Shown here: one piece after another, positions 21,606 through 33,135 of the stretch
Layout of the letters: each line of letters starts with the position of its first letter
Position numbering within the stretch: the stretch's first letter is position 1
Origin: Yuukianura sp. NJ FZ-2021
Taxonomy: Eukaryota
Direction: 5' to 3'
Length of the DNA stretch: 64,000 nt
Assembly: GCA_046563655.1 (NCBI GenBank)
Contig: CM102286.1
Location: 15,438,001 to 15,502,000 of the forward strand
The notes under the pieces: model-generated
The model's input: only the letters and a program-made list of their open reading frames with translations
Database searches by the model: none
Told to the model about the DNA's origin: nothing
Made by a program: the position numbers and the translations under genes

Positions 21606-22237
21606 ATGCCGCAGATAAATGGTTCGGAGATTTCTGGAGATGACGAAAATGATAAACAGTTGTCAGCCTCTGATGTAGAAGACTCTGGGTCTGATTACGA
21701 AGACTCTTGCCCTTATGCACAAGATTCGGACTCTGACCAACCAAGAAGCAAGAAACGTTGCACACGAGTTGACTCTTTTCAAAAAACAAATGAGCTGCAG
21801 GTAACAAGGACCAAAATATTTGAATTAGAATTTTGACACTTTTCTTCATTTATCTCTTTTCCTAACACTTTGTGTTCTTTTTATAGGAAGAATGTTCCAC
21901 CACGGAATCGCAAGTAGAACAGGTCATCAACGAGAGCGATCCTGTCGAGGATAATTTGGAAACCGAATTGAGTCAGAGAGATGTGTCTGATTTCCCACTT
22001 TCACAAGAGGACGCCAAACTTATTGCCATTATTTCTCCATTCCTCAATGTACACCCATTTGGAGCAAGCTTGCAGCGCATTACCTCATTCGTGAAGAATA
22101 TCATGCCGACCGTTACCACTAACGAAATACGAGGTATTCTGCTTCACTACACGGAAATTTTTAAACTGGAGGAGGTAGAGGTGACTGACGACGTCATAGT
22201 GCCTGTATGGTCATTCATTGCGTTGTGTAAAAATTAA
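21606..22237 (+). CDS. Acidic N-terminus + NLS-like motif + ENOX1/2 C-terminal-like domain (2 coding exons)
   Basis: Intron ~21801-21886; DAKLIAIISPFLNVHPFGASLQRITSFV...IFKLE...WSF matches the ENOX C-terminal motif EALLVGIISTFLHVHPFGASIEYI...WKF. Confidence 0.75.
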
Positions 22238-22516: not shown

Positions 22517-22800
22517 ATCTTGACTCTCTTGTAAGTAATTTGTTTTTATCTTACTATTAGCTTTAAATTTTCTTTCAACTTTTATCTTCACATACTTTAC
22601 CGCTAGCATGCGTCTCGTGCTCAAAACGTGGTACCGTCATTCACTGGCAAGCAACAGCGAATACTGCAACAAATAGCAGCATTATCACTATTGGCGAAAG
22701 TGAATACCCGTGGAATCAGCCTATCACAGTATGTAGATCTAAAATGAAGAGATGCGGGAATCATCAAACTGTACTAAATTCAATTATACTGTGACAGGAG

Positions 22801-23289
22801 ATGCCGTGGATTAATGAAGTTGTTGGAGAGGACAATGACGTGGATTTAGCAAATTCGGGTCCAGAAGACAGTGACGTTACCAATTCGGATTTATCAGATT
22901 CTGAGTGGGAACAGTCATACTTTCACGAAGACGCACTGGATGTGTTAGAAAATGAATTAAAACTGCTCATAGATTCTGTTCAAACAGAATTGGATAAGAG
23001 AACTCCAGCGAAGTCTACGGCCGGCAATGATTATTATGGCATTTTCACAGATTCAAGTCCAGACGCAACATTAACTGGAATTATGTCTTCATTCTTAACA
23101 GCTCATCCACTCGGAACAACTCTTGATTGTATCGCAGAATTTGTCAAAACAATTCTACCAACCTTAACGGTACAGGAAATTGAATTCGTTTTAATGCAAC
23201 ATCCAGAAACGTTTACACAACATGCGTCAGCCGAGACAGGAGCAGGTCCAACAAGCACATGGTCAGTTGTCGGGATTTCAGGCAATTAA
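22801..23289 (+). CDS. Second acidic + ENOX C-terminal-like domain protein
   Basis: DATLTGIMSSFLTAHPLGTTLDCIAEFV...HPETFTQ...TWSVVG is paralogous to 21956-22237. Confidence 0.72.
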   Translation: MPWINEVVGEDNDVDLANSGPEDSDVTNSDLSDSEWEQSYFHEDALDVLENELKLLIDSVQTELDKRTPAKSTAGNDYYGIFTDSSPDATLTGIMSSFLTAHPLGTTLDCIAEFVKTILPTLTVQEIEFVLMQHPETFTQHASAETGAGPTSTWSVVGISGN

Positions 23290-25623
23290 GTCACTCTCTT
23301 ACCACTTCTTGTATATTATAGCTTTCCAGGTACATTGACTTTTGAATTAAAACTGCTACTAAAACCTCATGGAACCTGACAAAGTAAATTACAAAGCTTC
23401 TTTTGATATCACTTGAGTAATAAGTGTAGGGAAAGGAACAACTTTTTTTTTGTTACTGCTTGCTACATATCATCACACGTTTAATGTCATAGAGCCATCA
23501 CAACGGTTTGAAAATTTTGTAGGACATTTTTAATTTTTGCAGAAAATGTTCGTCTCAACATTAACGTAGCGTTAAACCTTAAATTATGGTTTACTGCAAC
23601 TTGGAACACTATACATCAGCAACCAACTTAGCAAAATTACTCACACTTCATAGCAATGTATTTAGATGGATGGTGCTGTGATATTTCTTGAGTCATTTTG
23701 TCAACAATATCATCGTTCCATTCATCGAAATTCAATTGCAACTCATCAATACCACCAGCATCCGATTTCTTATTGACAACCACCTATCATTGTAAGGTAA
23801 TGCGGGATATAACAGGTCAGTTTGTTTTTTGTCTCGTTTCAAATTTAAATCAGCAAACAAATTTTCAATTTACTTTTAGTTATTTCATCATTTTGACTTT
23901 CTCTAGACACAACTTGTACTAGCACATCCATTAATTTACATCAATTGACGTACAGTTCTCAACTTAAACTTGTGTAATCTTCACAAATACCATTCGTTGT
24001 CTGAAACCGATGAAACTTAAGGATTTATTGTCATTAAAGAAATCCTTGCGTTTCGTCGTTTGCAGCAACGACATAGTTCGTCAAGTTATTGGCATTACAA
24101 AACAGCTAAAATAAAATTCTCCTTCTTACACCTGCACTTTTTAGGTAAACAAGCATTTTACATTTAACATGCAACTTTGTATTGCGGAGATAGTTCAGGA
24201 TAAAGAAATTTCCAAACAAAAAAAACAATTTTCAAAACCATTTCTCCTGTCATATGACAATGCTCTTAAATCTACCCAATCCTTTTTTTCTTATTTGTTA
24301 GCAAATGTTTCAACATGAACACAAGTTAGTTTGGAAGGTTGATATTTTAGGTTAGGTTGCGGCTGAAGCCAATTCACTTATTACTTATCAACATATGAGA
24401 AAATTAGTAGGTAACTTAAACTTTTTTTTGCTTGAGTTAGGCAACTCACCCCCGATGCTATCCAAATATAACCCTGTGTATTTCAAATTCTGTTAGCCGT
24501 CGAAAATAAACTTTACTGACGGAATGCGTTGCTTCAAATTCCTTTCATTTTTATCATGTCTACTTCATAAGAATCTACTTCGTTAAGGTATATTATGAAG
24601 GGAAATAATTTTTCTTTATTACTCATAAAATATTCTGTAGATATTTCAAAGCTGTCAGTAAACCATTAGTGTCAGCAGGAGAAGGAAACACAAATAAAGC
24701 TGCTCCAGAACTCCCCGTTGAAATAGGGATGATGGGGGTTGTTTGGCGAAATAATAAAGCTTGATATTTTTTCGACAATCGTCCTCTACCCTGCCTTTTT
24801 CAAATCATCTGCAATAAATAAGACTACCTACATTTTTCCAACGTCAACATGGAGGTGCCCCCAGTTTGTTCTAAACTTTACCACTGTTTGTAAAGGTAAA
24901 TTCTTCAAAAAGATGTGTTTTTCATTCAAATGTCGAGTTTAATCTACCTTTTTTTTTATTTTTTTTTTATTTTTTATTACTTTTTGACAGCATACACTGC
25001 AAAACATCACAACCAGTATAAGAAGTCAACCTACTCATATTCGCTGTCCTGTGCAATTTCAATTCTACGAAAACGTAATGGCGACTCAATACTGAGCGGG
25101 CACTACTTATAAATTGTATTAGTTTGCTGCAAATTTGTATATTGTGCCCGCTGGTTGTCGAGTCGTGTATCAACCTGCTCAAAAATGTAATCTGATGCGA
25201 CTTTGAGGAAAAAACGCATTTCCATCATGTCACTAGGATTGCACAAATAATTGACCAGAAAAAAGAGTTTCTGTCTCAAGTTTCAGATTGAACAAACTGG
25301 TCAAATTTCTGTCTGCTTCTTTTGTTACAAGACCAACTGAGTGAAATTGCGTTTACCTTCATGAAGAGTTTCAACAAATTGTAGAGGTAACTTCAACATT
25401 GTTAATTCTCATTTTCCGATGGGTTACCATTTTTTTTTCATTTTCCATGTATTTCTTCATGAGTGCATGAGGAAAAGGTTTACAGATATGTTTCTGTATT
25501 TCTCAATTTTACAAGTAAAACTGCATGCCGGTGGGTTAGAAATTTTTTTTTCAATTCAGGTGATATCGTCCCAGACGTATCATTACTACATTACAAATCT
25601 AAGTTCAGCCACCGTTTTAAGTT

Positions 25624-28569
25624 ATGACAGACTCGGAGACTAGACAGAGTAAGAGAAAAAAGAAGGCTGCAGCACTTCTCAGACTCTACACACCCAACGA
25701 GGAACTGGCAGACACCAAAACCGAAACCGTCATCTCTCTCAAATCAAGTCCACGGAGAATTGTCAATGAACCAGACGACACCCGAAGTGTTACGTCACAC
25801 CTTAGTCACATGTCGGCGATGTCAGCCATTAGAAAGAAGCAGCGGGAGCTGGAATTGGCAGCACGGCTCAAGATGATAGAAAAAGATCGGAAGATTGCTC
25901 AGCTGGAAGCGCAACAACAGAAGAAGATTGCAAACGAAGAGAATCATATCATCGAGATGAAGCTTGAGGTGCAGTTAGCGAACCTCGCGGACGAAGAGCA
26001 GGATATTTTAGAAGAGATGGGACTTGTCGAGTGGCATCCACCGGTGGTAAATTGTCCAGACAGTCAGAACAGGGCTACACAGGATTGGGTCAACAAAGTT
26101 CTCTCAGGTCCACTATCCCCCATTCCTTCACCATCATATTATTCACACAATGTATCTCAACCGCCAGTATCAATTCACCAATCAGAAGTTACATCTGAAA
26201 TTAACCAGCCCGGAGAAGCAATGGACTTGGCCTTCAGTAAGTCATTGGAACAAATGAAACCTGTAGTCACTCCTCCACCGGTAGTTACTTCCTCTACTTC
26301 CAAAAAAGGGTTCGCAAGAAAGGCCTACGAGAATGATCTGCCTCACTTGAGTGGTCGACCAGAAGAATGGCGAGTTTTCCATGAAGCCTATACTCAATCT
26401 ACCGAAAAATGTGAATTTTCTGACTATGAAAATCTAAACCGTCTACGCAAATGTCTAAAAGGGGAAGCCCAGAAAGAAGTCGAGTGCCTGCTACATGACC
26501 CCGAGAACGTCTCTCGGATCATGACTATCCTAGAAAGAAGATTCGGGCCCAACAGTCACATCATTAACTATCATCTTTCGAAACTCCAGAACGTTCCACA
26601 GATGAAGGAGAATGATCTAGAATCCGTCAAGAACTTGGAACGGTACGTTTGTCACCTAGTAGAGATACTGAAGGGATTCAATTTAGAAGCCTATATCGAG
26701 GATTCACAACTACTGTGTCACATCGTTGACAAATTACCCCTTTCCTTAAAAGAGAAATGGATGGAAGCCCACGACGAACGCACGTGTTCTCTCATCCTCT
26801 TTGAGGAATGGATTCGAAAGAAGATCGACGTTGAGGAAAGATCCGTGCATCCGGAGATCAAAAAAGAAAAGGGCAAAAATGACAAACACACTAGCAGGTC
26901 AGTACCCGTTAAAGGACACACATCCCAGTCAAACATGCAGACATCTCAGGGAACATATCTGCCGCAACAGCAGCAGTCTACACTGGTCTACAACGGAAGT
27001 GACCTTCCTCAATTCAATGGTTGTCCGGAAGAGTGGTTGACCTTCCATACCGCCTTTACTCAGACATCACAGAAATGCGAGCTTGCAAACTATGACAATC
27101 TTCACCGTCTCCGTCTATGCTTAAAAGGAGAAGCCCACAAGGAAGTAGAGAGTCTGCTACATGACCCAGAAAACGTACCTCGGATCATAGCAATCCTAAA
27201 AAACAGATTCGGGCGCAAGAAGCACATCATAAACTATCATCTGTCCAAACTCCAGAGTTTTCCACAAATGAGAGAGAATGATCCAGCGTCAGTCATGAAC
27301 TTTGGAATGTACGTCCGCAACTTGGTAGAGATTCTGATGGGTTTCAAATCGCAAGTCTACTTGGAGAATCCACTACTGTTGGATAGTCTCATCGCCAAAT
27401 TGCCGGTTTCTATGCAAAAAAAGTGGATGGAAAAACACGACAACAGCACGAGTTCCCTCATCTTATTTGAGGAGTGGATCAGAGAGAAGGTCGATATTTC
27501 TGAGAGACTCCTGCTGCGAAAACTCACGGATAATAAACAAAAGAGGAAAAAACAGAGTAGCAAATCCGTAGTTACTACGCACCAGGGAAGTCCATCGCAG
27601 CCAACTTCAGGCAGTTCTCAAGCTTCATCTAACACTCAGCAGCAGCAGTCTACAACTCAAGCCAGCCGATGTCATCATTGCCAGACAAACGGCCATCGCA
27701 TTCATGGTTGTGAACAGTTCAAACAGGCAACTTTGGAAGTACGCCTCAACACAGTCAAGATCCGGAAGCTTTGCTACGGATGTCTCAACTTTGGTCACGG
27801 AACAAAAGACTGTCGCTCCAAGAAGAAGTGTACAGTCGGCGACTGCAGTTACTTCCACCATCAGCTTTTACATCGGACCACGGCTCCAGCTACTTACCCA
27901 TCTCAACTACACGGTTCCACTCAAGTCACTTACCCAGTTATTCCTGTCATACTCATGGGCCCGAAGGGAAATGTCTCTACCTATGCTCTGCTGAGTTCGG
28001 GATCCGCCTACACCCTACTGGACGAAGTACTAGCAGACCAACTTCAACTCTGTGGAAACAAAGAACCTCTTCGTTTCACCACAATCACTCACCCTCAGGG
28101 CTCAGTAGTCCTTTCACGGTCAGTCTCTCTCAGTATTTTCAACGTTACTAATGGAGACTCATTCAACATCACCAACGTACGTACTTTCCCATCACTTACT
28201 ATTCGTGCTGGCACCGTGACTCGGGCACAGCTAGCAGAGTGGAAACATCTAGACGGATTGCCTCTTCCATTGTACTCAGATGTCCGGCCGAAGATCCTGA
28301 TTGGAATTCCACACCATAAGCTGATTACCCCTACTGAAATTGTGAAAGGTCCCCCAAACGGTCCACTAGCGTTGAAAACGCCGCTCGGATGGATGGTCTG
28401 CGGGAAGATGGCTCTCCCTGCAGGAAGCAAAACAGCCAACCCCACCTACGGAGTCTACACTGTCCTACAATCTCCACCACAGTTAGTACAGCAATACTAC
28501 CACTGCCAAATTTTTATTCTATCGGATTCTAATCTAATTTACTTTAACTGTTTTCCTGTGTGTTTGTAA
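25624..28569 (+). CDS. gag: BEL/Pao-derived Gag (two DUF1759/capsid-like domains, Zn knuckles) + degenerate aspartic protease; no RT/RNase H/integrase; candidate domesticated gene
   Basis: LP(H/Q)(L/F)xGxPEEW...L(R/K)xCLKGEA occurs twice; CHHC...H...C, CYGCLNFGHGTKDC and CTVGDCSYFHHQLLH knuckles; ALLSSGS in place of ALLDSGS; PKILIG and KTPLGW motifs; AATAAA at ~28856. Confidence 0.85.
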   Translation: MTDSETRQSKRKKKAAALLRLYTPNEELADTKTETVISLKSSPRRIVNEPDDTRSVTSHLSHMSAMSAIRKKQRELELAARLKMIEKDRKIAQLEAQQQKKIANEENHIIEMKLEVQLANLADEEQDILEEMGLVEWHPPVVNCPDSQNRATQDWVNKVLSGPLSPIPSPSYYSHNVSQPPVSIHQSEVTSEINQPGEAMDLAFSKSLEQMKPVVTPPPVVTSSTSKKGFARKAYENDLPHLSGRPEEWRVFHEAYTQSTEKCEFSDYENLNRLRKCLKGEAQKEVECLLHDPENVSRIMTILERRFGPNSHIINYHLSKLQNVPQMKENDLESVKNLERYVCHLVEILKGFNLEAYIEDSQLLCHIVDKLPLSLKEKWMEAHDERTCSLILFEEWIRKKIDVEERSVHPEIKKEKGKNDKHTSRSVPVKGHTSQSNMQTSQGTYLPQQQQSTLVYNGSDLPQFNGCPEEWLTFHTAFTQTSQKCELANYDNLHRLRLCLKGEAHKEVESLLHDPENVPRIIAILKNRFGRKKHIINYHLSKLQSFPQMRENDPASVMNFGMYVRNLVEILMGFKSQVYLENPLLLDSLIAKLPVSMQKKWMEKHDNSTSSLILFEEWIREKVDISERLLLRKLTDNKQKRKKQSSKSVVTTHQGSPSQPTSGSSQASSNTQQQQSTTQASRCHHCQTNGHRIHGCEQFKQATLEVRLNTVKIRKLCYGCLNFGHGTKDCRSKKKCTVGDCSYFHHQLLHRTTAPATYPSQLHGSTQVTYPVIPVILMGPKGNVSTYALLSSGSAYTLLDEVLADQLQLCGNKEPLRFTTITHPQGSVVLSRSVSLSIFNVTNGDSFNITNVRTFPSLTIRAGTVTRAQLAEWKHLDGLPLPLYSDVRPKILIGIPHHKLITPTEIVKGPPNGPLALKTPLGWMVCGKMALPAGSKTANPTYGVYTVLQSPPQLVQQYYHCQIFILSDSNLIYFNCFPVCL

Positions 28570-29022
28570 AGGCGAGACACGAAGTGAACAAAACAAGCAC
28601 CTGATCCCCCGACTAGAAAAAGGGAGATGACTTCCAGCGTGTAGAACGTCAATGCAGGAAACCAAACCCATCGCTCCAACAAACCTCACACCCAACACGG
28701 CGAGGAAAAGGGATTCCATACACTTGTGCCACTAGTACACCCGTCAATAGTCTAAATTTGTAATTGCAACTCCCAAACTTTGACATAACTTCTCTACACC
28801 TCAAATCCAACATTGTCCACACTTCTTGTAAATTAATTAATTCATAATTCATGCAAATAAAAGTTTCTTATTGTTCCTCTCAGCAAAACCAGGAGAGTTT
28901 GCTTTTGTTTACTAAGATTTCCCATTAGATTTTCCATTCTCAGGTGTTTGGCATGTGTTAGACCTGTTTTCAAGACCCCATTAGATTTTACATGCTCAGG
29001 AGTTCAGGTACTCCAAATGTTA

Positions 29023-32000
29023 TTCCCAATTTGGCTCCAAATTGGAATCCCTAATCCACCTCTAAAATGTACGGAAGCTTAAAAGGGTCAAATCACGTCC
29101 CACTTCCCAGTGCTCGGTACTCGATACCCAGTGCGCGGTTCCCAGTACTCGCTACTCGCTTCCCAGTACTCAGTGCGCGGTTCCCAGTACCCGGTACCCG
29201 CTTCCCAGTACTCAGTGCGCGCTTCCCAGTACTCGGTACCCGCTTCCCAGTACTCAGTGCGCGGTTCCCAGTTGTGCTGCGCGGTTCCCAGTTGTCGCTG
29301 CGCGGTTCCCAGTTGTGCTGCGCGGTTCCCAGTTGTCGCTGCGCGGTTCCCAGTTGTGCTGCTCGGTTCCCAGTACTCGATTCCCACTTCTCAGTTCCCA
29401 GTGCGCGGTTTCCGGGTGGTCCTTTTTCTTCAAAAATCCTTATCTCCTTTTTGTTGCCCTTTGGAGCTCGAGCCTTCCTTTCTATCTGCAAAAATGGCAA
29501 TTATGTAAATGCAGTACCGTGAGGATCCCAGTGTAGAAGACCCATGGCTGTTATTTATTACCAAAATGAGAGTAACTAAAAAATTGCACTAATTTCAAAA
29601 AAATACCGTACTGCATCGAGAACATTGACAATTAAAATAACATGCGGATACTTAGGTTCAAAAACTGAACAAAAAATCAACAATAATTAAAAAAAAATAT
29701 TTGAGTTGACGTTCTTTCTCCTTGCAAGTGAATTTTGAACTATTGAATGATTTGATTATTATACCTATTTTTATCTTTTACACTTACAGTTCTGTTGTGT
29801 TAATAAATATTTTAGCGTTCACTAAAAAATTGAATGATCTAACTATTGATTTTTTTTATTATTGATTTTTTGTTCAGTTTTTTATTTTGTTTCACTCCTT
29901 GAAACATTTTGAAGTAATGAATTTTTTTAAGTATTAAATTTTTATGGAAGTATTGCCATTTTATTTTAATTGTTAATTTGTTTGATGCGTTACGGTATTT
30001 TTCTGAAATTAGTGCAATTTTTTTAATTTTGCTCATTTTGGTAATAAATAACAGCCATACGTCTTCTACACTGGGATCCTCACGGTACTTCATTTACATA
30101 ATCGGCATTTTTGCAGATAGAAAGGAAGGCTCGAGCTCCAAAGGGCAACAAAAAGGAGATAAGGATTTTTGAAGAAAAAGGACCACCCGGAAACCGCGCA
30201 CTGGGAACTGAGAAGTGGGAATCGAGTACTGGGAACCGCGCAGCGACAACTGGGAACCGCGCACCGCGCACTGAGTACTGGGAAGCGGGTACCGAGTACT
30301 GGGAACCGGGAATCGAGTACTGGGAAGCGAGTACCGAGTACTGGGAACCGCGCACCGGGTACTGGGAACCTCGCACCGGGTACCGGGAACCGCGCAGCGG
30401 GTACTGGGAACCGCGCACCGGGTACCGGGAACCGCGCAGCGGGTACTGGGAACCGCGCACCGGGTACTGGGAACCGCGCACCGAGTACTGGGAACCGCGC
30501 AGTTAAACTCCAGTGTATTGCTTATGGAGGAGGTAATCGGGAAGCGAGTTGGCCCTTTTACGCTTCCGTAAAAATGGGATCCCTAATTTAACTCAAACTG
30601 GAAGTCCCACATTGACTCGAAAATGGGATTCCCACATTGACTCCAAAATGGAGTTCCCAAATTGAATCCAAAATGGTAGTCTCAAACTGAACCCAAAATC
30701 GAGTTCCCATATTGACTCCAAAATGGACGTCCAATTAGGACTCCCAAAGGTGTTACTTTCAACTCAAAATAAGACTCCAAAATGGAAGTCAAAATAAGAC
30801 TCCAAAATGGAAGTTAAAATGGGACTCAAAAAAGGGTTACTTTCAACTCAAAATGGAAATCAAAATAAGACTCCAAAATGGAAGTTAAAATGGGATTCCA
30901 AAATGGGAGTCAAAATGAGACTCCAAAATGGAAGTCCAAATGGGACTCCCAAAGCTTTCCAACTCAAAATCGATGTCCAAATGGGACTGCCAAATGGAAT
31001 TGAAAATTGGATTCCCAAAGCCCTTTATTTCAACTCAAAATGGAAGTGGAAATGGGACTCCCAAATGGAACTCCAAAAGCCCTTTTTTCCCTCTCAAAAT
31101 TTATTTTTTTAACATGGTGAGAGTCATCATTAAGTATTATCATTTTTTCTAGATTTTGTATTATAAACGCCATTGCCAGGAGTTTGAGAGCATCATAGAA
31201 GGTTAAGGTGTCTGCATACTGTTAAAAAGTTTATGCGACTCCGAAATGGAATTCCCAAATTAACTCCCAAATGGCATGCGAAATGGGATTCCCACATCCC
31301 TTCAACTCAAAATGGAAGTCGAAATGGGACTCCCAAAGCCCTTCATCTCAACTCAAAATGGAAGTCTAAATGGGACTTCAAAATGGAAGTCAAAATAAGA
31401 CTCCAAAATGGAAGTTAAAATGTGACACCAAAAAGGGTTACTTTCAACTCAAAATGGAAGTCAAAATTGGACTCCCAAAGGGAACCCCAAATGAAATCCG
31501 AATTTGGACTCCCAAAGAGAGTCCCAAATGCTATCCAAAATTCGATTCCCAAAAAGAACCCCAAAGTGATTCCCAAATTGGAGTTCCAAATTCAACCCCA
31601 AATACAGTTTCAAATCGGACTCCCAAAGAGAGTCCAAAATGAAATCCAAAATTGGACTCCCAAAAGGAACCCCAAAATGAAATCCCAAATTGGAGTCCCA
31701 AAGAGAGTCCAAAATGAAATCCAAAATTGTAGCCCTAAAGGGAACACCAAAGTGAATCCCAAATTGGAGTCTCAAAGAAAGTCCGTCCCAAATGCTATCC
31801 GAAATTGGACTCCCAAACAGAGTCCCAAATGCTATCCCAAATTGGAGTCCTAAAGAGAGTCCAAAATGAAATCCAAAATTGGAGTCCCAAATTCAACCCC
31901 AAATGGAGTTCGAAATCGGACTCCCAAAGAGAGTCCCAAATGCTATCCAAAATTGGAGTCCTAAAGAGAGTCCAAAATGAAATCCAAAATTGGACTCCCA

Positions 32001-33135
32001 AAAAGAACCCCAAAATGAAATCCCAAATTGGAGTTCCAAATTCAACCCCAAATGGAGTTCGAAATCGGACTCCCAAAGAGAGTCCCAAATGCTATCCGAA
32101 ATTGGAGTCCTAAAGAGAGTCCAAAATGAAATCCAAAATTGGAGTCCCAAATTCAACCCCAAATGGAGTTCGAAATCGGACTCCCAAAGAGAGTCCCAAA
32201 TGCTATCCGAAATTGGAGTCCTAAAGAGAGTCCAAAATGAAATCCAAAATTAGACTCCCAAAGAAAACCCCAAAGTGAATCCCAAATTGGAGTCCCAAAT
32301 GCTATCCGAAATTGGAGTCCTAAAGAGAGTCCAAAATGAAATCCAAAATTGGACTCCCAAAGGGAACCCCAAAGTGAATCCCAAATTGGAGTCCCAAAGG
32401 GAGTCCAAAATGAAATCCAAAATTGGAGTCCTAAAGGGAACCATAAAGTGAATCCCAAATTGGACTCCTAAAGAGTGCCCAAAATAAATGGAATCCGAAA
32501 TTGGATTCCCAAAGAAACCCCTAAACATAATCCAAAATTGTGTCCGAAATTGAAACCCCAAAAGGAATCCGTAATTGGAGTCCCAACGTGAACCCCAAAT
32601 AAAACCCCCAAATTGACTGCAATGGAATTCGAAATGGGGTTCGAAAATGATAGTCCCAACTCGAACCCAAAATGGAATCCCCCAATTCAACTCCAAAATG
32701 GAACTCCCAATTCGCCTCCAAAATTGAATCCCTAATTTAAATCCAAAATTGAATCCCTAATTTAACTCCCAAATGGAAGTCGAAATGGGACTCCAAAAGT
32801 AATGTAAAAAGTAAAAACCTAACCTAATACAATCCCAAATTGGATTCCCAAAGAGAATTCTAAATGGAATTCGAAATTGGATTCCCAAAAAAAAACCCTA
32901 CATGGAAGCCAAAATTGTGTCCAAATTGAAAACCCCAAAACAAATTCTAAATTGCAGTCCCAATGGGAATCCGAAATAAAACCCCCAAATTGACTCCAAA
33001 ATGGAAGTCCCTATTCAACTCCAAAATGGAATCCCTAATTCGACTCAAAAATGGAGGTTGAAATGGGGCTCCAAAATGCAATTCCCAACTTGACTCCACA
33101 ATGGAATCCCTAATTTAACTCCAAAATGGAATCAT
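29023..33135. repeat. Degenerate satellite built on ~10-11-bp CCAAAATGGA/GACTCCCAAA units, with ~110-150-bp higher-order repeats (31790-32400); interrupted by the foldback element and by ~31110-31230
   Basis: Block 31861-31971 recurs near-identically at 32121-32231. Confidence 0.9.
29070..30570. mobile_element. Foldback-type non-autonomous element with ~600-bp internally repetitive inverted arms
   Basis: Termini TACGGAAGC(T/G)TAAAAGGG(T/C)CAA are inverted; arms contain 18-21-bp TTCCCAGTAC.. minisatellite units and a near-identical ~270-bp unique inverted block; AAAATG duplicated on both flanks. Confidence 0.8.

Follow-up and report, generated by a model that had tools for sequence, protein, structure and literature searches.

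A single-copy gene of BEL/Pao gag-protease origin with a doubled capsid and a lost catalytic aspartate: a candidate restriction factor in Yuukianura sp.

Documented animal co-options of gag are, within the open-access literature, of Ty3/gypsy or retroviral origin. A locus in Yuukianura sp. NJ FZ-2021 raises the question of whether a BEL/Pao gag has also become a host gene and, if so, what the gene does. The window analysed is a stretch of 64 000 nt of contig CM102286.1 (assembly GCA_046563655.1), and all positions given below are positions in this window. The initial annotation had proposed a domesticated Gag with two capsid domains and an inactive protease, acting in Arc-like particles or as a restriction factor.

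Structure and origin of the gene

The annotated reading frame was recovered intact, from an ATG at 25624 to a stop at 28569 (981 aa). The features of the locus are as follows.

25387–25559, + strand: putative 5′ UTR intron, 173 nt, 31 % GC, of non-element origin, with an AG/GTAACT donor and a T-rich CAG acceptor
25556–25623, + strand: last 68 nt of a BEL element leader, retained as 5′ UTR
25624–28569, + strand: gag-protease ORF of 981 codons (an estimated ~958 aa if the 3′ intron is spliced)
25810–26016, + strand: N-terminal long helix (aa 63–131), a predicted coiled coil common to element Gag
26338–26850, + strand: capsid module 1 (DUF1759, aa 239–409), the more eroded copy
27004–27516, + strand: capsid module 2 (DUF1759, aa 461–631), with a predicted two-domain retrotransposon capsid fold
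27670–27873, + strand: three Zn knuckles with metal ligands kept
27940–28481, + strand: domain resembling an aspartic protease, in which Ser (codon 27994–27996) replaces the catalytic Asp by alignment to seven elements
28482–28571, + strand: putative 3′ intron, 90 nt, 31 % GC; contains the end of element homology, at 28498
28575–28917, + strand: degenerate copy of an eIF4B 3′ end, comprising the end of the last exon, the 3′ UTR and AATAAA at 28856

The gene is of BEL/Pao gag-protease origin, lacks LTRs and pol, has its capsid doubled and has lost the catalytic Asp; its 3′ end was taken from eIF4B. The two DUF1759 modules gave separate Pfam matches (E 4e-15 and 9e-15), as expected from the initial annotation, and are 61 % identical. 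Module 2 keeps 45 of 53 family-conserved residues and module 1 keeps 39 of 53, with 47 kept in the related element L016. The capsid assignment was also supported by structural modelling of module 2, which was modelled singly and gave a mean pLDDT of 95.6 with 98 sequences. Its best structural matches were the capsids of dArc1, copia, PNMA2, Drt2, Arc, PEG10 and Ty3, and all of the top 13 rows were capsids, with modest but uniform Z-scores of 5.8–8.5; by Foldseek, E was only 0.07. A single-sequence fold of the full-length protein was uninformative (pLDDT 38.7). The three Zn knuckles comprise two CX2CX4HX4C motifs at aa 683 and 717 and a third Cys/His motif, read from the sequence, at aa 736–750. 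The protease had been called dead from the motif ALLSSGS (aa 788), and this was upheld by alignment: the Ser stands opposite Asp in 7 of 7 related elements, and the column holds Asp in 99 % of aligned homologues (107 homologues collected). Two bases have changed in the codon. Searched alone, the protease-like domain had no Pfam or PDB match.

The two capsid modules differ over their first 50 codons as different living elements do, with the first ~50 codons of module 1 resembling a different element type from its remainder, and the tree of the capsid core is a star that includes L016. Because of these two observations, a joining of modules from two donors is a likelier origin of the doubling than the copying of a single module in place; two derived residues are common to both modules. 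Two separate target specificities are not supported, since both modules are mostly of one element type. The inter-module dN/dS of 0.25–0.35 was rejected as proof of host selection, given the star-shaped tree and the derivation of the 5′ parts from different element types.

At the 3′ side, homology with the elements stops at 28498, where element pol begins, in agreement with the annotated absence of pol. LTR pairs, a PBS, a PPT and target duplications, all of which are seen in the relatives, gave no match above shuffles within the window, and the LTR ends and PBS/leader of four elements scored no higher than shuffles anywhere in it. The gene therefore fails the tests for an LTR element. Signals for the annotated 5′ intron are present at the locus (GTAACT at 25387 and CAG at 25557–25559), and the putative donor fits the consensus at five of six positions. 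Element homology begins at 25556, exactly at the T-rich acceptor, and the putative intron had no alignment to six element leaders. The signals of the annotated 3′ intron, GTTAGT and AAG (28569–28571), were also found, with the donor starting at 28482 and not at 28481 as had been stated; this putative donor is weak (three of six positions). Both putative introns have a GC content of 31 %, compared with 47 % for the ORF, and neither aligned to element or eIF4B sequence. Inside the putative 3′ intron, deletions of 1 nt and 2 nt are present in a contig of runs X2 and X4.

The annotated polyA signal is present (AATAAA at 28856), whereas the eIF4B origin of the piece that contains it (28575–28917) was absent from the initial annotation. 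Its parent was identified as eIF4B (E 4e-23), with 74 % identity to two loci on contig C5. Its start lies 3 nt downstream of the second putative acceptor, and an unassigned segment of 76 nt lies at the junction between element and eIF4B. An in-frame fusion to the eIF4B tail is not supported, as a stop and frameshifts behind the acceptor at 28571 cut the tail off; the 46-codon tail frame of eIF4B is itself open to its native stop. On C5, eIF4B and a neighbour are present twice (L023 and L024, at ~10.61 and 10.54 Mb), inverted and ~65 kb apart. The two eIF4B copies are identical over the 330 nt compared, and the pair is either a recent duplication or an assembly duplicate.

A living source family in the same genome

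The gene is single-copy in the 98.7-Mb assembly. Its nearest relatives are seven BEL/Pao elements with a capsid identity of 49–77 %, followed by matches of at most 32 % (48 matches of 124 candidates); over aligned pieces, the seven have 66–81 % DNA identity to the gene. LTR-flanked near-identical copies, which the initial annotation had named as the mark of a non-autonomous element, were not found in this assembly, in which there is one copy, without LTRs. All of the relatives have a single capsid and the catalytic Asp, and six of the seven are full-length, with ORFs of 1853–1904 aa that encode RT, Peptidase_A17 and integrase. The single ORF of L016 comprises a DUF1759 gag, three knuckles, protease, RT, Peptidase_A17, integrase and DUF5641, which places it in BEL/Pao (Belpaoviridae). 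The LTR pairs of the relatives are 98.4–100 % alike and are accompanied by a PBS and PPT, with 5-bp target duplications in five of five checked. This indicates that the family was recently active. The gene itself is young, as one tract differs from element L021 at only 8 of 112 bases.

Of the globular parts of the elements, the capsid C-terminal domain varies most, with a mean identity of 56–66 % versus 86–99 % in pol and a pN of up to 0.41. Between L016 and L017, pN is 0.009 in RT-integrase and 0.39 in the capsid C-terminal domain; judged by these distances, the pair is a capsid-domain swap within an active BEL family.

Among public proteins, no orthologue above 45 % identity was present in the best 150 of 3451 matches. 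A search with the whole protein returned only four distant BEL proteins, the knuckle-protease part had no match and exact look-ups found none; the same protein sets are also without the source elements themselves. One of the best matches falls into a cluster with a Folsomia candida record, in line with a springtail genome. Three apparent tandem-capsid relatives (P0006, P0013 and P0034) contain exact internal repeats and are probably assembly or annotation artefacts, and a fourth candidate (P0140) has one DUF1759 only.

A satellite of 25/37-nt units extends from 29015 to 33100, and units ~75 % alike occur inside the LTRs of L019 and L021, with different tandem repeats at the same LTR positions in other family members. 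The satellite was not accepted as an LTR remnant because LTR ends do not match there. It contains an inserted foldback element (29070–30576), whose long inverted arms consist of 21-nt units. The family of this element is dispersed in the genome (53 matches), and the insertion appears to be missing from at least one haplotype, to judge from a loose end at 29069 in run X4. Upstream of the gene, two small tandem genes (22010–22234 and 22795–23289) without a Pfam match end in a similar motif, which we take to recall the ENOX C-terminal domain; a 68 % DNA match to them is located on C3. Near the contig end, 49900–63300 is a tandem array of duplicated, partly broken LRR/F-box-like genes in units of 3.2–4.4 kb.

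Evidence for and against selection

Whether the gene evolves as an element, as a host gene or without constraint was assessed from its substitutions. The gene has changed 62–70 of 443–460 columns that are invariant in elements (14–15 %), whereas elements tested in the same way have changed 3–16 of ~360 (1–4 %). This indicates that the gene long ago stopped evolving like an active element. No stops were observed, whereas the spectrum of substitutions in the gene predicts 11.9 (P 7e-6). The probability is still 4e-4 if neutral evolution lasted for only 0.055 changes per site, and it reaches 0.06 only at 0.02 changes per site with frameshifts ignored. Private indels in otherwise gap-free columns were all multiples of three (5 of 5), compared with 1 of 13 gaps in the eIF4B piece (p 7e-4, a contrast that depends on the alignment). 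In capsid 2, knuckles and protease combined, family-conserved residues were changed at 6 of 107 versus 31 of 148 (p 5e-4), and in the protease alone at 3 of 45 versus 18 of 72 (p 0.013), with the catalytic Asp as one of these three. Changes at invariant first and second codon positions numbered 43 of 762 in the Gag parts and 33 of 289 in the protease (p 0.002). ADAR-type hypermutation was rejected as the source of many missense changes without stops, since A>G accounts for only 9 of 100 changes. In thirteen interrupted BEL copies of other families, of which nine were hit, frameshifts (20) outnumbered in-frame indels (11) and stops (3); these copies were chosen as broken and so show the kind of lesion and not its rate, and they have far fewer missense changes than the gene. 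The absence of stops, the in-frame indels and the spared conserved residues together show that frame and fold have been kept by selection after element-like evolution ended.

Estimates of dN/dS set a limit on the strength of this selection. By maximum likelihood, branch values were 0.95–1.0 for the protease, ~0.6 and not significant for the N-terminus, unstable and poorly determined for both capsids, and 0.09–0.18 for the knuckles, the only domain clearly below 1; the terminal branches in this test include time spent as an element, and elements recombine. Capsid 1 showed no sparing of conserved residues (3 of 43 vs 3 of 37; by another count, 8 of 50 vs 17 of 98). By the selection criterion used for co-opted gag genes, selection is thus present for frame and fold and weak by dN/dS. 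The domestication proposed at the outset accordingly stands in part: the single copy, missing LTRs, host-type ends, open frame and spared residues favour it, and the lack of an orthologue in public protein sets and a dN/dS of ~1 in several domains count against it.

The criteria for co-opted gag genes (PMC8321522) also look to syntenic orthologues across species or families; so far, the same locus is present in run X4, from a second study. Among the differences listed, its main haplotype departs from the gene by nine missense changes, four silent ones and an insertion that keeps the frame, and none of them is a null change. The 9 : 4 ratio fits neutrality (p 0.75) and does not reject a dN/dS of 0.3 (p 0.10). 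Other X4 contigs are nearer to the gene, at 5.5 % (27920–28118) and 12 % (26594–26838), in comparison with 21.6 and 23 % for the nearest elements of this assembly. They could represent alleles, a paralogue or an element subfamily closer to the gene; if X4 held a closer, relaxed subfamily, the host phase would be shortened. A divergent haplotype block in X4 (25274–25832) holds 12 of 13 differences over 3.3 kb, and six of its six coding differences are missense. X4 also has a structural variant behind 28671, in the putative 3′ exon.

These observations bear on the strongest rival explanation, in which the locus is the relic of a non-autonomous, Gag-only lineage that was selected while it moved with borrowed pol, later lost its LTRs, came to lie next to an old fragment of eIF4B and now evolves by drift. 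Such a history would account for the dN/dS of ~1 in protease and capsid 1, the nine missense to four silent changes and the closer contigs in X4, the subtelomeric patchwork of the region, and the two element donors of the capsid modules, as template switching would give. However, no second copy, LTR end or PBS was found, and the element homology starts exactly at one acceptor with the eIF4B piece 3 nt behind another. A sense polyA signal inside an element would be expected to cut its genomic RNA, and a cis-acting Gag-only element would gain little from preserving the frame and fold of a dead protease. We consider a Gag-only relic unlikely. Co-option in some role, whichever it is, appears the probable outcome.

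Candidate restriction of the source family

If the gene was co-opted, which function would it serve? Of the two that had been suggested, a restriction factor fits better and an Arc-like particle less well, given a source family that remains active in this genome and swaps its capsid C-terminal domain. Our leading proposal, to which we give slightly less than an even chance, is that this single-copy, LTR-less gene is a host restriction factor whose protein co-assembles with the Gag of the family and poisons its particles. A host promoter would drive transcription through the 5′ UTR intron, with the transcript presumably ending at the eIF4B polyA signal. The two capsid modules, tethered in one chain that does not process itself, would enter the element lattice and distort it, as do the capsid C-terminal domains of yeast Drt2 and p18, and the knuckles would keep the protein on element RNA. 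The active site of a retroviral protease needs one Asp from each subunit, so that an inactive partner could be dominant-negative. The folded but inactive protease would, by pairing with active subunits, lower processing. The retained frame and fold, the freely varying surface residues, the chain that does not process itself and the presence of a live cognate family all suit a decoy, and the cognate family that a decoy presupposes is indeed active in this genome. On this view, the living elements would have swapped and diversified their capsid C-terminal domains in escape; competition among elements would predict such swapping too. A fuller version is unlikely as a whole. It posits a decoy with two warheads, one being the pair of tethered capsids, which would poison the lattice, and the other a protease, selectively inactivated yet folded, which would poison maturation. 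This decoy would drive capsid swapping in the elements, use host splicing and an eIF4B 3′ end and be the first case in an animal of a BEL/Pao gag turned restriction factor, found while young and next to its living target.

The evidence from stops, indels and spared residues would be the same for a co-opted gene whose capsid particles serve a host purpose unrelated to defence, such as RNA carriage or signalling as for dArc, PNMA2 and PEG10. Capsid 2, which keeps 45 of 53 conserved residues and models as a full capsid, and the intact knuckles would suit such a role. However, it would sit poorly with the lack of self-processing and with a second, tethered capsid that has lost conserved residues (39 of 53 kept), and the weak overall constraint, young age and live source family would fit conflict better; we regard a host-particle role as improbable. 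A neutral, untranslated fragment with a frame open by luck, as dN/dS of ~1 in some domains and the fact that a long ORF singled this locus out from at least 148 DUF1759 matches might suggest, is very improbable given the missing stops (P 7e-6), the exclusively in-frame indels, the spared conserved residues and the lesions already carried by 9 of 13 broken BEL copies with far fewer missense changes.

The proposed restriction factor has its closest parallel in yeast. Drt2, a domesticated Ty1′ gag, is described as restricting its own subfamily through its capsid C-terminal domain, which joins particles and poisons their lattice; three residues determine the specificity (PMC10951436, PMC12530519). 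As in the Drt2 and Ty1 p22-p18 systems presented there, a young gag-derived locus stands beside its living source family, a capsid C-terminal domain is involved and the locus is structurally variable; the Drt2 structure (9rxy) matched the module 2 model at Z 7.3. Drt2 and p18 differ in being Ty1/copia-derived, yeast, truncated C-terminal domains with demonstrated restriction (PMC10951436, PMC12530519), whereas the present gene is of BEL/Pao origin, in an animal, with two whole capsids, knuckles and a dead protease, and its restriction is inferred. The retrotransposon capsid fold in an LTR-less gene is common to dArc1/2, PNMA2, PEG10 and Fv1, the last of these also a gag-derived restriction gene; as described, they are old, have one capsid and a Ty3/gypsy or ERV origin, and their expression is demonstrated (PMC10516033). 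If the restriction reading holds, the gene would work like Drt2 or Fv1 without belonging to their families.

Other systems resemble the gene in single respects. Crtg14 is a co-opted Bel-Pao gag, reported as fungal, ancient and present across families, while the present gene is in an animal, lineage-specific and young; the screen that described Crtg14 excluded co-options below family level (Wang and Han 2021, PMC8321522). It is the only Bel-Pao gag co-option found in print (PMC8321522), and no animal BEL gag co-option or tandem-capsid gene was found in the open-access literature. Iris of Drosophila (CG4715) is likewise a BEL-clade host gene with a still active source lineage and a lost processing site, but by the account in PMC1262188 it is env-derived, at least 25 million years old and of demonstrated expression. 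LTR-mediated chimeric retrocopies also fuse element sequence to a sense piece of host mRNA; those described in PMC5131818 have LTR element sequence on both sides, while the present gene is without 3′ element sequence and has the 76-nt junction segment. BEL-type capsids of Atlas viruses are reported to assemble and package nucleic acid (10.64898/2026.03.22.711591).

With the donor family alive in the same genome, the birth of a defence gene and the response of the elements become directly testable, as they are for Drt2 in yeast. If the restriction reading is true, the tandem capsid with a conserved but dead protease would be a new design for capsid-based restriction factors.
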